DNA of 64,000 nucleotides from Candidatus Portnoybacteria bacterium (GTDB lineage Bacteria > Patescibacteriota > Minisyncoccia > Portnoybacterales > GWB1-42-6). This document shows positions 18,627 to 30,008 of this stretch, piece by piece. Every line of letters begins with the position of its first letter. The first letter of the stretch is position 1. The DNA is taken from contig JAQTYI010000004.1 in NCBI GenBank assembly GCA_028688325.1, forward strand, positions 8,638 through 72,637, written 5' to 3'. The notes beneath the pieces were generated by a model. The model saw only the letters and a list, made by a program, of their open reading frames with translations, searched no databases and had not been told where the DNA came from. The translations under genes and the position numbers were made by a program.

Positions 18627-18968
18627 ATGGAAATAATTATAGAAAGCATTGCGGTTGAAAGATTAAAAGAAATGTCCGAAAAGATGTTCGGCAACATCGT
18701 TAAGGCGGTGGTTGATATTGAGCGTGGCATTATGGCGATAGACGGCGAGTTGCATGCCGATTTGGAGGTGCTTTTATCGGATAATGGATCGGAAAGAAAA
18801 AATGTATGGGGGATAAATTTTCATCCCGATGCAACGGGAGGCGATTTTGTAGAGTTTGATTCCATGATCAATTTAAAGCCGCAATTTGGCAACCGGACGC
18901 GCGGGGTGGACAACGAAGAAATAAGAAAAAAAATAATGGAAGTGGTAAATAAATCAGTAAAAAAATAA
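18627..18968 (+). CDS. Hypothetical protein (113 aa), first gene of a coupled pair
   Basis: AT-rich island; stop overlaps the next ATG (TAATG). Confidence 0.4.
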   Translation: MEIIIESIAVERLKEMSEKMFGNIVKAVVDIERGIMAIDGELHADLEVLLSDNGSERKNVWGINFHPDATGGDFVEFDSMINLKPQFGNRTRGVDNEEIRKKIMEVVNKSVKK

Positions 18969-19303
18969 TGGCATATCAGCATCAAGAATTAGCCCAAGGC
19001 CGCTGGCAGAAATTCTCTTTTTTTGAACAGATGGCGAATGTGGGCAGCGAAGTGGGCCGAGCGATAAATTGGCGGAGTAAGAATGAGGTAAATTCTCGCT
19101 TAGCTTTTGAGCGGGCGCTGGAATTGCTGGATTTGACGATAGATGATAAAAGGAATAAGGCGCGGCGGGGAGAATTAACGCGGGCACGCGAGGTTTTGGT
19201 TGATTATTTTGCGGGAAATAACGATTATCGGTCTTCGGACGCAAGCTGGCAGAATTATTTTTACGCGTTCAACTATGCCGCCAGATTACAAGCGGGTGTG
19301 TAG
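18968..19303 (+). CDS. Hypothetical protein (111 aa), translationally coupled to the upstream gene
   Basis: ATG overlaps the upstream stop; no recognisable domain. Confidence 0.4.
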   Translation: MAYQHQELAQGRWQKFSFFEQMANVGSEVGRAINWRSKNEVNSRLAFERALELLDLTIDDKRNKARRGELTRAREVLVDYFAGNNDYRSSDASWQNYFYAFNYAARLQAGV

Positions 19304-19437
19304 TTGGCAGTTTTTTAAGGGAAGAGAGATTTTTAAAAACAGGGCAGGGTAGAGAAAGAATAAAATGTATACACGGAGAGGTCGTCCGCTCAGGCATAAT
19401 GAGCGGATCCGCTCGCTTCGCCGAGCGGACATACAAT

Positions 19438-19698
19438 ATGTTTTATGTCTATGTGTTAAAAAGTGAAAAAGACGGGAACTGTTATACCGGTTTTAGCATT
19501 GACTTAAAGAAAAGAGTAGAAGAACATAATAAGGGGAGAGTAGAAATAACAAAAAATCGCAGGCCCTTGTTGTTGGTTTATTATGAAGCATTTTTGGACG
19601 AGAAGGCTGCGAGGCGGCAAGAATTATTTTATAAGACCGGTCAAGGAAGAAGAATTTTAAAAAAGAGATTAAGCTTTATACACGGAGAGGTCGCATAG
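19438..19698 (+). CDS. Small GIY-YIG nuclease-family protein (copy 1)
   Basis: FYVYVLKSEKDGNCYTGFSIDLKKRVEEHN GIY-YIG motif; 3' end overlaps the tRNA-Ser 5' end. Confidence 0.65.
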   Translation: MFYVYVLKSEKDGNCYTGFSIDLKKRVEEHNKGRVEITKNRRPLLLVYYEAFLDEKAARRQELFYKTGQGRRILKKRLSFIHGEVA

Positions 19699-19768
19699 AG
19701 GCCGAGTGCGCTCGCTTGGAAAGCGAGTGGTCCGCAAGGACTCGAGGGTTCGAATCCCTCCCTCTCCG
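19684..19768 (+). tRNA. tRNA-Ser (anticodon GGA), type II with long variable arm
   Basis: Manual fold: acceptor GGAGAGG/CCTCTCC, 3-bp D-stem, anticodon loop TTGGAAA, T-loop TTCGAAT. Confidence 0.7.
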
Positions 19769-19796
19769 CAATCCTTCGCTAAAGCTACGGAATTGC

Positions 19797-20096
19797 ATGC
19801 ACTATACTTATATTTTATTAAGCTCAAAATCCCATATTTTTTATTTCGGATCAACGAACGATTTGAAGAAAAGATTAATTTTACATAATTCTGGCAAGGT
19901 ACCATCCACTAAACCGCATATTCCTTGGATTCTGGTATGGTACGGTGCTTTTCAGGCAGAAAAACAAGCAAGGGATTTTGAGCTTTACTTGAAAAATGGA
20001 TCGGGGAAGGCCTTTGCTTATAAAAGATTAGTTTCGGTAGCTTTGGCGAAGGATTTTGAATCCGGGAGAAAAGGTAGTCCGAAGCTAAAAGCGTAG
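19797..20096 (+). CDS. Small GIY-YIG nuclease-family protein (copy 2)
   Basis: YTYILLSSKSHIFYFGSTNDLKKRLILHNSGK; start reset downstream of the tRNA. Confidence 0.6.
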   Translation: MHYTYILLSSKSHIFYFGSTNDLKKRLILHNSGKVPSTKPHIPWILVWYGAFQAEKQARDFELYLKNGSGKAFAYKRLVSVALAKDFESGRKGSPKLKA

Positions 20097-20100
20097 GATA

Positions 20101-20114
20101 CCCTCCCTCTCCGC
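20101..20114. repeat. 14-bp direct repeat of the tRNA-Ser 3' end (ccctccctctccgc), att-like
   Basis: Identical to 19756-19769. Confidence 0.55.
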
Positions 20115-20240
20115 CAGATGTCCAAGTTATAACCGAGGTAAAATAAGGGATTTTGACGATTGAAAAGCTGGTATCCGTAAAGATGTCGGTTTTTCAATAA
20201 TACTTATCAATAGCAAAGAAAATTGGTATAATAGAGTCAT

Positions 20241-21413
20241 ATGAATGGAAGTCAAAAACATCTAAATCATATAGACGCCATTAATCTTGGGTCATATTAT
20301 ACCCCAGGTATTATTGTTGATTTGGCTTATTCTATTTTGCAAAAAAATATCAAAGATATTAAAGATTTTTCAATATTAGATTCTTCTTGTGGTTACGGTT
20401 CTTTTTTGATAAGAAACAACATTGTGAAAAGATTGATTGGAGCCGATATCGATCAAAAAGCCATTTCTGAAGCAAAAAAAATAATTAGCGGAGTTGATTT
20501 TATCTGTCAAAATTCTCTTTTGAATGTTAGTCGTTCAAGTTTAATGATTAAGAATGATGAAAAAATTATAACCATAGGAAATCCTCCATATAACGATACA
20601 ACATCTATAATTCGTAATTCCATTAAAGATACTTCCATTCAGGATAAAATCGATGCCGACATAAAAACTAGGGATTTAGGCATGTCATTTTTATTGTCTT
20701 ACGACAAACTAAAAGCGGATTATGTTTGTGTTTTGCATCCTTTATCATATTTAATCAAAAAAGCCAATTTTGCCCTGCTTTCAAAATTCGCTAAAAATTA
20801 TAAATTAATTGACGGAATAATCATAAGCAGTCACGAATTTTCTGATACTTCTCGCGGAATGGCTTTTCCGATCTTGATCGCCCTTTATGAGAGGGATGAA
20901 AAAGGAATGGACTATAATTATATTCAAAATTATCAGTTCAAGGTGAAGGACGATGGTATTTTCCGTCTAAAGGATTTTGATACTATAGTCAACTATGTTC
21001 AAAAATATCCAAATAAAAAATTTTTAAATAAAAATGACAAGCCAGTAGCAAGGTTTTGGACTTTGAGAGATATAAATGCACTTAAACGAAACAGGACTTT
21101 TATTGATGAAGATACTTATAATACCGTTTATGTGTTAATGGAAAAATTGCCCTATTATTGCTACATCGATATTTTCAAACAATATACAGATAGAATGCCT
21201 TATTTCATTGGCAATTGTGATGTGATAATTGATAATGAAAAATTCGGAAAAATAAAGGAGTGCTTTATTGCCCAAAGCGTTCACACAAATCCGGTATTAA
21301 GAAATAAGTTTAGGTTTAGAGAAATTCCGGATGCAAAATTTAAAATAGATAACTATTTTAAAGAGTTGTTAGAAAATAAATTTGGAAAAAAACATGCCGC
21401 AAATTTTAATTAA
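20241..21413 (+). CDS. N6-adenine DNA methyltransferase, gamma class (YTP...FxGxG...NPPY), with C-terminal target-recognition region
   Basis: LGSYYTPGIIVDL; ILDSSCGYGSFL (motif I); GNPPY (motif IV); very AT-rich. Confidence 0.7.
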   Translation: MNGSQKHLNHIDAINLGSYYTPGIIVDLAYSILQKNIKDIKDFSILDSSCGYGSFLIRNNIVKRLIGADIDQKAISEAKKIISGVDFICQNSLLNVSRSSLMIKNDEKIITIGNPPYNDTTSIIRNSIKDTSIQDKIDADIKTRDLGMSFLLSYDKLKADYVCVLHPLSYLIKKANFALLSKFAKNYKLIDGIIISSHEFSDTSRGMAFPILIALYERDEKGMDYNYIQNYQFKVKDDGIFRLKDFDTIVNYVQKYPNKKFLNKNDKPVARFWTLRDINALKRNRTFIDEDTYNTVYVLMEKLPYYCYIDIFKQYTDRMPYFIGNCDVIIDNEKFGKIKECFIAQSVHTNPVLRNKFRFREIPDAKFKIDNYFKELLENKFGKKHAANFN

Positions 21414-22155
21414 AAAAGACGAACATAAAATAAAAATACCAATTTTATTAACTGCTGTTAGTGGAAAAATTCGCATTAAAAACCGATCAATTTTGAATGA
21501 ATACGGAACGCCAGTTGCAGTTAAAAGAGATGGTTTCTTATTAAGCAATTATGTCGAGTGGCAAATTGGCTACGATGTGGTTAAAAAGGAAACAGAAAAG
21601 CTCGCAGAGTCATCACTACCCGAAACTGAATTTATTGGGGCAAATGGAAAGGTCAAGGCGCTTTATGAATTGTCAGAGTATATCTGGTATTTTTATAAAT
21701 GGAACATTATCACCAGAGAAGAATTAGAGAGCGTTATCGCTTATCTTGATTCGATACAAGACCAGAATTTAATTGATAATAATTCCGAGTTGCAAATTGA
21801 CCGCAGTCATCCAATTGAGAAAAATATAAATGGATTTGATTTTGAATATACTCAAGTTAAATACCCTCTATTGATTTACAAATTTAATGGATACGAAATT
21901 ATTACCGAAATAAAAATTACCGAAAAGCAATATGCGGTTGGCACACAGCCAATGTTGTATTTATGTTTTCCAATCACAGAGTTAAAATCAGAAGTTAATT
22001 TAATTGGACGATGCGCCGAAATAAAAGAAATTGCCTATTTTGAAATTTCGGAAAGTAATATTAAAGTATTTTTGGAAATGCTAAAAATGTTTGGCATTTT
22101 ATCTAAAAACCACAAACACGATATTCTACAGATTATTAATACGATTTTAGAATAA
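21382..22155 (+). CDS. Hypothetical protein overlapping the methyltransferase by 32 nt; candidate restriction endonuclease or partner
   Basis: Operon overlap; AT-rich; possible D...EIK nuclease-like motif (weak). Confidence 0.4.
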   Translation: MEKNMPQILIKKDEHKIKIPILLTAVSGKIRIKNRSILNEYGTPVAVKRDGFLLSNYVEWQIGYDVVKKETEKLAESSLPETEFIGANGKVKALYELSEYIWYFYKWNIITREELESVIAYLDSIQDQNLIDNNSELQIDRSHPIEKNINGFDFEYTQVKYPLLIYKFNGYEIITEIKITEKQYAVGTQPMLYLCFPITELKSEVNLIGRCAEIKEIAYFEISESNIKVFLEMLKMFGILSKNHKHDILQIINTILE

Positions 22156-29407: not shown

Positions 29408-29773
29408 ATGCAATTGAATTCTTATAAAGATCTAAAAGTTTGGCAAAAAGGGTTGGATTTGGTGATTGGGGTTTATGCGTTGACTGAAAAGTTTCCCCAA
29501 TCGGAAATTTATGGTTTGACCTCACAAATGAGAAGGGCGTCTGTTGCCATCCCGTCAAACATTGCTGAAGGTCAGAAAAGAGGCCACTATAAAGAATTTC
29601 TGCAGTTTTTATTCATAGCTTATGGGTCGGGAGCCGAGCTTAAAACGCAGATAGAAATATGTAAAAAGCTTCCCAAAATAAAAAATTTGGATTATAATAA
29701 TTTGGAGTTAGTTTTAGCGGAAGTGATGAAAATGTTAAACGGCCTGATTACTATATTAAAAAAGCGTTTATAG
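29408..29773 (+). CDS. Four-helix-bundle protein (23S rRNA intervening-sequence protein family)
   Basis: LKVWQKGLDLVIGVYALTEKFPQSEIYGLTSQMRRASVAIPSNIAEG family signature. Confidence 0.7.
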   Translation: MQLNSYKDLKVWQKGLDLVIGVYALTEKFPQSEIYGLTSQMRRASVAIPSNIAEGQKRGHYKEFLQFLFIAYGSGAELKTQIEICKKLPKIKNLDYNNLELVLAEVMKMLNGLITILKKRL

Positions 29774-29816: not shown

Positions 29817-29888
29817 TCCGCGGTAGCTCAGTGGTAGAGCGAGCGACTGTTAATCGCTTGGTCGCAGGTTCGAATCCTGCCCGCGGAG
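29817..29888 (+). tRNA. tRNA-Asn (anticodon GTT)
   Basis: Manual fold: acceptor TCCGCGG/CCGCGGA, D-arm GCTCAGTGGTAGAGC, anticodon loop CTGTTAA, T-loop TTCGAAT. Confidence 0.85.
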
Positions 29889-30008
29889 CACGAACAAAGT
29901 GAGTGCGTAGCGGCTTGCGCCCATCCGTAGTTTTAACGAAGGAGGGCCCGCGGAGCTATTAATAAAGGTCGATGAAAATTTAATCAGTTTTTTTAAATTA
30001 TCATTTTT

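Follow-up and report, generated by a model that had tools for sequence, protein, structure and literature searches.

We analysed a 64,000-nucleotide (nt) stretch from a Candidatus Portnoybacteria bacterium (contig JAQTYI010000004.1, positions 8,638 to 72,637), here called the window. It contains a tRNA-Ser(GGA) gene that is bracketed by two small genes of the GIY-YIG nuclease superfamily. Gene 1 and gene 2 are each accompanied by a pair of short direct repeats, one pair containing the 5' end of the tRNA and the other its 3' end. The features of the locus, in coordinates of the window, are as follows.

19357..19384, + strand: orphan fragment made up of the native tRNA 5' flank and tRNA-Ser nt 1-10, with an exact 17-nt core at 19368-19384
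19385..19429, + strand: two-hairpin module with hairpins H1 (TCCGCTCAggcataaTGAGCGGA) and H2 (TCCGCTCGcttcgcCGAGCGGA) and the central palindrome GAGCGGATCCGCTC
19438..19698, + strand: GIY-YIG gene 1, 86 amino acids (aa), a Pfam GIY-YIG match with its stop inside the tRNA
19677..19693, + strand: second copy of repeat 1, from a search of the window; the 3' end of open reading frame (ORF) 1, equal to the native tRNA 5' flank, together with nt 1-10 of the tRNA
19684..19769, + strand: tRNA-Ser(GGA), intact, found by ARAGORN and Rfam; 86/86 nt identical to that of L001
19756..19769, + strand: first copy of the 14-nt repeat, the last 14 nt of tRNA-Ser: T-stem 3' strand, acceptor 3' strand, discriminator and one further nt
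19770..19796, + strand: 27-nt leader, the left end of element 2, AATCCTTCGCTAAAGCTACGGAATTGC, conserved across copies
19797..20096, + strand: GIY-YIG gene 2, 99 aa, a Pfam GIY-YIG match with 638 homologues
20033..20055, + strand: right arm of an inverted repeat, in the 3' part of ORF2, kept with compensatory variants
20101..20116, + strand: second copy of the 14-nt repeat (orphan tRNA 3' end), then CA, the native CCA end seen in relatives

The tRNA gene was intact and contiguous (55.2 bits with the Rfam tRNA model) and differed from that of L184, a relative with an empty site, in the variable arm only. Repeat 1, TATACACGGAGAGGTCG, occurred exactly twice in the window, at 19368-19384 and 19677-19693; shuffled sequences gave no match, even at two mismatches. 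Because the tRNA begins at 19684, the second copy comprises 7 nt of 5' flank and tRNA nt 1-10. With mismatches the repeat reaches 28 nt (86% identity). The native 5' flank at the empty site reads ..tacgcac, followed by GGAGAGG, and the orphan at 19357-19384 was also present at the orthologous locus L001. Repeat 2, CCCTCCCTCTCCGC, was likewise found exactly twice in the window, at 19756-19769 and 20101-20114, with 0.02 occurrences expected by chance. The CA after its downstream copy corresponds to the native CCA end of empty-site relatives (native end of L184: CTCTCCGCCA). A preliminary description made from the letters alone had reported a 17-base-pair (bp) direct repeat around gene 1, its second copy lying across the tRNA 5' end with the gene 1 stop codon inside the tRNA, and a 14-bp repeat around gene 2. 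It was accurate on all of these points, and neither repeat contains a mismatch or occurs elsewhere in the window.

The segments bounded by the repeats measure 309 and 345 bp, and a GIY-YIG ORF is the sole gene of each. In-silico removal of either 19385-19693 or 19770-20114 produced a native-looking tRNA gene with a CCA end and the native 5' flank, which argues for two separate insertions. No integrase gene was found between or beside the repeats, and Pfam revealed no DDE, HUH, serine or tyrosine transposase in the elements, GIY-YIG being the sole domain. No group I intron RNA model matched at the locus, where the tRNA is contiguous, and in the Rfam, PHROGs and PADLOC searches the tRNA was the only match. 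Neighbouring ORFs encode GroEL, a DUF5674 protein, a methylase and an R.Pab1-like endonuclease.

Both proteins consist of a single minimal GIY-YIG domain of 86 and 99 aa, respectively (Pfam scores of 48.0 bits for ORF1 and 54.6 bits for ORF2; cut-off 22.6), with no other Pfam domain. In an alignment of 15 sequences including both of them Y3, Y5, Y16, R26, H30 and E62 were invariant; judging by I-TevI and UvrC, these residues, among them the two Tyr of GIY and YIG, the Arg and the metal-binding Glu of the motif, presumably have catalytic roles. Gene 2 has Gly at the position of the YYE Glu (E50) of the subfamily. Matches by phmmer were to BH0048 (PDB 1ZG2; E = 1.9e-7) and to 1YWL (E = 1.8e-5). 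On the basis of sequence both genes belong to the stand-alone Slx1-like/UPF0213 branch of the GIY-YIG superfamily (PF01541), a family without assigned function (PMC1564403). The proteins stop 8-21 aa past the catalytic domain and possess no C-terminal DNA-binding module. With TIGR01453, which describes group I intron endonucleases, gene 1 scored 18.1 against a cut-off of 56.05 and gene 2 gave no match. The two proteins share 47% identity over 78 aa. The kinship of the genes, also part of the preliminary description, was thus upheld with a qualification: they represent two distinct element families of different anatomy.

In element 1 the start of ORF1 was set at the conserved MFYVYVL, and an upstream ATG at 19399 was not used. 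The 3' end of the ORF (GGA GAG GTC GCA TAG) reads 15 nt into the tRNA, with the TAG stop at 19696-19698. Hairpins H1 (19385-19407) and H2 (19408-19429) occupy the 48-nt gap between the first copy of repeat 1 and the ATG. They share the stem TCCGCTCR..YGAGCGGA, a pattern that matched the window only at these two sites (0 expected). The module folds with -29.6 kcal/mol (z = -3.2 versus shuffles) and was also present, with compensatory variants, in L001, L002/L003 and L006-L010. To distinguish an RNA from a DNA role of the hairpins, mismatches in their stems were counted with a crude hairpin finder; the numbers of G·T (25) and A·C (19) did not separate the two. The segment 19318-19386, which begins 5' of the orphan, weakly resembles the C-terminus of ORF1 (tblastn E = 8.6e-4). 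It may be a remnant of an older ORF C-terminus, but much of the signal comes from the exact repeat, and the remainder could be duplicated native spacer.

Element 2 contains a 23-nt inverted repeat. Its left arm (19770-19792) lies in the ORF2 leader and its right arm (20033-20055) inside the ORF, 45 nt inward of the right end of the element. As RNA this repeat forms a long-range stem (z = -4.6). When the 3'-terminal part of element 2 is folded as RNA, GGGAGAAAAGG and the orphan 14-mer pair into a minihelix-like stem that ends in GCCA. The region past the right arm (20056-20100 in the window, together with 59 relatives) showed a slight, weak excess of complementarity to the local tRNA 3' end (7.3 of 15 positions, versus 6.5 for non-local ends); the corresponding p = 6e-6 is not a true probability, as the copies are related.

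Orthologous loci were located via homologues of a 111-aa gene upstream of the tRNA. The shared synteny was GroEL - DUF5674 - 111-aa gene - tRNA-Ser(GGA) - PCC - desulfoferrodoxin, and the tRNA gene was seen in four states: bare, with a remnant, alternatively filled and filled with gene 1. L182, L184 and L185-L188 had a bare tRNA-Ser(GGA) with a GIY-YIG gene on neither side and the 3' end CCGCCA. In L181 and L183 a short linker separated the tRNA from a downstream orphan 3' half (reaching from position 36 to its end), with no ORF. In L177-L180 the site was occupied by another GIY-YIG gene (39% identity with gene 1), preceded by its own orphan, arranged as GGAGAGGTCGCATA, two hairpins, AGGCCGAGTGCGTTCGCTTGG and two further hairpins. 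The tRNA-Ser(GGA) following this ORF has a different acceptor stem, variable arm and T arm. Since the orphan keeps the resident acceptor strand (GGAGAGG), the tRNA adjoining the ORF must have been replaced. L001 possessed gene 1 (at 90% identity) and lacked gene 2; its orphan and hairpins were the same as in the window, and its tRNA was identical. We had first taken L001 for the same element in a different genomic context; the synteny (GroEL ... PCC-desulfoferrodoxin-DUF333) revealed it to be the orthologous locus, and the argument for mobility based on it was dropped.

The strain variants L002 and L003 encode identical GIY-YIG proteins next to different tRNA-Ser(GGA) sequences. This exchange and the one in L177-L180 indicate co-conversion of the tRNA with the element. 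Downstream, in L002 (3255-3625) and L003 (3255-3670), there were arrays of a truncated 5' stub, two hairpins and a tRNA 3' half. Runs of N in both assemblies coincide with these arrays and suggest that the repeats break assembly.

Further observations concern the surroundings of the tRNA. In the window, genes for an N6-adenine DNA methylase and an R.Pab1-family restriction endonuclease follow directly downstream of the tRNA-Ser cluster (20241-22155). L181-L184 have PCC and desulfoferrodoxin in their place, and the restriction-modification pair appears to have been inserted beside the same tRNA. Upstream, the DUF5674 gene and the overlapping 111-aa gene (18627-19303) are a conserved pair beside GroEL; the 111-aa protein had no Pfam match and more than 2000 homologues in Patescibacteria and other candidate phyla. 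On the 3' side of tRNA-Ser(GGA), distant Patescibacteria share ..gaattcggattttg.. and attttcactttttgtgaa (L177 3292-3330, L008 2856-2895, L185 3033-3050, L007 455-475), which may reflect exchange beyond the tRNA or a conserved terminator.

Gene 2 had 638 homologues, 75-92% identical over all 99 residues, in many classes of Patescibacteria. We collected 92 copies with their flanks, 47 of which were unique and had a detected tRNA. In this set the gene stands 27-80 nt 3' of a tRNA on the same strand, and the host tRNAs belong to at least 9 species (Ser-GCT, Ser-GGA, Ser-CGA, Ser-TGA, Gln-TTG, Gln-CTG, Asn-GTT, Leu-GAG and Met-CAT). The ORF ends in ..GTAGGATA, and a copy of the last 14 nt of the local tRNA follows. 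This copy was exact in 23/47 unique cases and had at most 2 mismatches in 32/47; it covers the same 14-nt span, from the T-stem 3' strand to position 74, at 9 tRNA species. The closest protein relative was situated at a tRNA with the same anticodon in just 12/43 cases (a Gln-TTG copy and a Ser-GGA copy, for example, are 90% identical), and so the targets of gene 2 must switch often. The leader abutting the tRNA was 27/27 identical in 8/11 copies whose third codon positions were only 48-62% identical. The inverted repeat was kept, with compensatory variants such as TAAAG/CTTTA to CAAGG/CCTTG, in most of 63 unique copies.

This leader, otherwise invariant, holds a 42-nt palindromic insertion in L094 (1949-1990) and L097. 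The insertion ends in AGCTA, repeating a preceding AGCTA, and small hairpin insertions recur inside these elements. Elsewhere in the window, tRNA-Asn(GTT) (29817-29889) has 11 nt of its 3' end repeated 57 nt further on (GCCCGCGGAGC, 29946-29956). Just 5' of this copy, ATCCGTAGTTTTAACGAAGGAG resembles an arm of the inverted repeat of element 2 (score 16, versus 11.9 ± 1.6 and a maximum of 19 in shuffles). These features are suggestive only, and 29817-29956 may be an ORF-less remnant of a third element. Directly upstream of tRNA-Asn is a gene for a '23S rRNA intervening sequence protein' (PF05635, bAvd-like; 29408-29773), and a PF05635 homologue is also found near the GIY-YIG/tRNA-Ser locus in L002 (356-700).

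All gene 1 homologues of at least 63% identity were located directly upstream of tRNA-Ser(GGA), and several of them end in ..GEVA or ..GRVA because the ORFs read into this tRNA. A profile scan that used one genome per species yielded 80 loci in many phyla; at about 30 of them, counted by eye, a tRNA on the same strand begins at or just past the end of the ORF. Together with the window and the searches for gene 1 homologues and orthologous loci, the scan gave 33 unique copies of the ORF-then-tRNA arrangement, which involve 14 tRNA species. In 26/33 the first 10 nt of the downstream tRNA, with at most one mismatch, recur 43-123 nt 5' of the ATG (chance <0.01 per locus).

The orphan in this family is the 5' part of the tRNA up to the D arm or anticodon arm, and a GC-rich hairpin is cleanly inserted into it or follows it. 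In the Ser-GGA family (L006-L009) the two hairpins interrupt the orphan precisely between anticodon nt 34 and 35, with GAAAGC and the ATG coming next; at many other tRNAs a conserved hairpin, CCCGCCCGCAACGC..GCGTTGCGGGCGGG, lies in the D region of the orphan. The orphans of the window and L001 are cut back to tRNA nt 10, and across copies between 10 and about 46 nt are duplicated. A mirror layout (tRNA, ORF, hairpin, 3' orphan) was found in L013, L016, L040 and L075. Tandem reiterations were seen in L009 and L048, and L006 is probably also tandem, as its contig begins inside an upstream ORF copy. ORF-less orphans with hairpins were present in L094 and an ORF-less remnant in L181. Those of L094 (1735-1770 and 2545-2680) are tRNA-Ser 5' halves ending in ..CTTG, then hairpins, upstream of tRNA-Ser(GCT) and tRNA-Ser(TGA); the same 1.3-kilobase stretch of L094 contains two different GIY-YIG genes and two tRNA-Ser genes. 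The 2-nt duplications flanking hairpins in L017, L018 and L057 were considered as the trace of a staggered cut and rejected, being explained by the terminal Gs of the hairpin arm.

The ratio of nonsynonymous to synonymous substitution (dN/dS) was 0.04 for gene 1 versus L001 and 0.04-0.10 for gene 2 versus eight relatives, with synonymous divergence (dS) of 0.9-2.2 in these comparisons. Such values point to strong purifying selection: both genes are old and functional and not in decay. The block of orphan, hairpins and spacer was identical at 59/65 positions in the window and L001, compared with 58% of ORF third positions and 57% in the 60 nt 5' of the orphan; the changes in the module were in loops or wobble-compatible. 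The leaders of both families are thus far more conserved than synonymous sites, and therefore we consider these cis elements functional. On this evidence the orphan and leader sequences are likewise under selection and not passive scars. Because synonymous sites are saturated, the perfect 14- and 17-nt repeats cannot have persisted neutrally since some ancient insertion; either re-insertion or gene conversion renews them, or they are selected.

The explanation that we favour, and hold to be reasonably probable, is that tRNA-Ser(GGA) was invaded twice by single-gene, tRNA-targeting, homing-endonuclease-like mobile elements, whose closest counterpart is SegB of phage T4. The anatomy of the elements, their recurrence, the empty, filled, remnant and tandem alleles and the purifying selection on proteins and leaders were all observed; the nuclease activity, cut positions, repair pathway and role of the hairpins are what we infer. 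Several claims of the preliminary description find their place here. Its two independent insertions, each leaving the tRNA whole, agree with the bare tRNAs of relatives and with the effect of deleting either segment. It had suggested comparison with relatives having an uninterrupted tRNA-Ser, and such a bare locus exists in L182, L184 and L185-L188. It had also named two observations that would speak against it. One, that the repeats are chance matches, conflicts with the cognate repeats in 32/47 gene 2 copies and 26/33 gene 1-like copies. The other, that the genes are fixed syntenic neighbours, conflicts with bare, remnant and different GIY-YIG alleles between the same flanking genes. Its homing-endonuclease-like reading holds as an analogy with T4 SegB.

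The only protein of each element would be a minimal nuclease of 86-99 aa of the Slx1/UPF0213 type. Element 2 (19770-20100) would have entered at the tRNA 3' end, so that the upstream 14-nt copy completes the tRNA and the downstream copy is an orphan. Its duplication is of fixed length and of the local tRNA sequence (Ser, Gln, Asn, Leu, Met), and therefore probably derives from the target itself in the course of insertion. As with T4 SegB, recognition would be of the universal T-arm motif; most simply, the strands would be cut about 14 bp apart, between the T-loop/T-stem boundary and position 74, with subsequent fill-in. Element 1 (19385-19676 plus the repeat) would consist of the hairpin module, the ORF and a replacement for the tRNA 5' flank and 5' end, or for the whole tRNA, and the displaced 5' fragment of the resident tRNA would stay upstream as the orphan. 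It might spread by double-strand-break repair (homing) of a naive tRNA gene, with orphan and tRNA serving as homology arms; repair would copy in the hairpins and ORF and often co-convert the tRNA (L177; L003 versus L002). A hairpin at the would-be cut site could mark or disrupt that site and render the orphan copy uncleavable. Recombination between the repeats would lead to clean loss and to tandem amplification, and both states were observed.

Several points weigh against this explanation. Cleavage and mobility are deduced from sequence comparison, and it is hard to see how proteins lacking a DNA-binding domain would recognise a target. The overhangs made by known GIY-YIG homing enzymes are 2 nt long, and no target duplication accompanies them. 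Joining DNA is beyond a nuclease by itself, and the 14-bp duplication needs an additional joining step. Since the functional tRNA copy retains the presumed target, it is not evident how the element would escape cutting its own locus. Of the gene 1-like loci from other phyla, about half lack a tRNA within 2.5 kilobases. Finally, saturated dS, very low dN/dS and conserved leaders also fit a long-resident gene that is useful to its host.

We suggest tentatively that the elements may represent a new class of bacterial mobile elements with a GIY-YIG nuclease of about 90 aa as the sole gene, in which targeting and insertion would proceed via conserved nucleic-acid structures and not via a DNA-binding domain of the protein. 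That insertion follows a new mechanism is a serious possibility. In one version a structure-specific nuclease may cut cruciforms or hairpins of tRNA genes, leaving a 14-bp staggered break that is filled in. In the other, the hairpin module and the variable tRNA fragment may act as scaffold and guide, by analogy with the omega RNAs derived from transposon ends.

A further possibility, which we consider unlikely, is that the GIY-YIG proteins are resident, host-useful enzymes co-transcribed with tRNAs, engaged, for instance, in the repair of tRNA loci or in reactions on tRNA or other RNA. Their mRNAs would then contain the tRNA-like fragments and hairpins as cis-regulatory elements or processing mimics, not as footprints of insertion. 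The strong purifying selection with saturated synonymous sites, the leaders conserved far beyond the neutral level and the minihelix-like stem ending in GCCA into which the element 2 orphan pairs are all in its favour. Moreover, the ORF reads into or abuts the tRNA and is therefore probably part of one transcript with it. Dunin-Horkawicz et al. (2006) found prokaryotic Slx1-like GIY-YIG genes as neighbours of, or fused to, homologues of tRNA methyltransferases, a link which fits such a role; their neighbourhood analysis reported neither adjacency to tRNA genes nor target duplications (PMC1564403). A resident enzyme is hard to reconcile, however, with empty alleles in close relatives, with families at 9 to 14 tRNA species carrying target-matched repeats, with close protein relatives at different tRNAs, with ORF-less remnants and tandem arrays or with the different family member at the same site in L177. 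Usefulness to the host and mobility are not mutually exclusive.

It is quite improbable that the repeats arose without site-specific insertion, by local tandem duplication and unequal crossing-over of a [GIY-YIG + tRNA] unit and subsequent decay. Tandem units do exist in L009 and L048, and the weak similarity to the ORF1 C-terminus 5' of the orphan (19318-19386) would agree with such a history. This does not account for the fixed 14-nt repeat at 9 tRNA species, the empty alleles or the clean insertion of hairpins inside orphans at defined tRNA positions, and unequal crossing-over between repeats is better viewed as a secondary consequence. Least credible of all is that the repeats are attL/attR-type scars of larger, integrase-mediated elements with the GIY-YIG genes as leftover cargo: direct repeats of a tRNA 3' end are a classical signature of integrative elements and a restriction-modification pair is present just downstream (20241-22155), but the segments are only 309 and 345 bp long with the GIY-YIG ORF alone inside, neither the interval between the repeats nor the adjoining sequence contains an integrase, some 90 copies of this minimal unit exist, and a 5'-end duplication with hairpins is unlike the integrase pattern.

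If the elements are mobile as we propose, a role would be found for a large UPF0213/Slx1-like family in the genome-reduced Patescibacteria and beyond, whose members are annotated merely as 'GIY-YIG nuclease family protein'. Duplication of the displaced end would be a third way to invade an essential RNA gene, besides self-splicing introns and integrase elements with a replacement end. Mobility of this kind would also explain why tRNA loci of metagenome-assembled genomes show orphan tRNA fragments, swapped alleles and breaks in the assembly, and minimal nucleases with a predictable, universal target (the tRNA T arm or 5' half) would become available for biochemical work.

We found no description of such an arrangement of mini GIY-YIG elements at tRNA genes in literature that mostly did not cover subscription journals, and the two widespread element families are apparently undescribed. 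With the classical GIY-YIG homing endonucleases (I-TevI/Seg) they share a presence/absence polymorphism at a conserved target, which is filled in the window, L001 and L177-L180 and empty in L182 and L184-L188. The classical enzymes have a C-terminal DNA-binding module, which is missing here, and they insert without target-site duplication, whereas 17- and 14-nt repeats occur here and recur in both families. Penelope-like retroelements combine a GIY-YIG endonuclease domain with target-site duplications that arise via staggered nicks; they are eukaryotic, however, and need a reverse transcriptase, which the present elements do not contain. Element 2 resembles DNA transposons in its target-site duplication of fixed length, while that of element 1 varies.

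Genomic islands and prophages with tyrosine integrases insert in tRNA genes, carry a replacement tRNA 3' end and leave a direct repeat, and they do not normally restore a tRNA 5' end. As in the present elements, the tRNA is kept functional by a supplied or duplicated end, although the direct repeat of the tRNA 3' end is shared by element 2 only. The elements described here differ in their size of about 0.3 kilobases, in the absence of an integrase and in that one type restores the 5' end.

In Patescibacteria, rRNA and tRNA genes are known to host insertions and introns with homing endonucleases (PMC11270868; PMC13011429). Hosts and mode of life, selfish insertion into conserved RNA genes, are the same, but those elements interrupt the RNA gene and require splicing or processing, whereas here the gene is kept intact by duplication. 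The closest parallel is T4 SegB, a free-standing GIY-YIG homing endonuclease encoded in the T4 tRNA gene cluster. It recognises the T-arm motif GGTTCRANTCC with relaxed specificity, cleaves nine tRNA genes at their 3' end and drives the inheritance of itself and the adjoining tRNA genes (PMC2330249). Many tRNA species similarly have element 2 at their 3' end, and the part that it duplicates begins directly behind the T loop. SegB differs in being phage-borne and homologous to the multi-domain Seg/I-TevI enzymes, in leaving 2-nt 3' overhangs and in causing no target duplication. The present elements, by comparison, are chromosomal, in Patescibacteria and other phyla, and are characterised by duplicated tRNA ends and by conserved hairpin or inverted-repeat cis elements.

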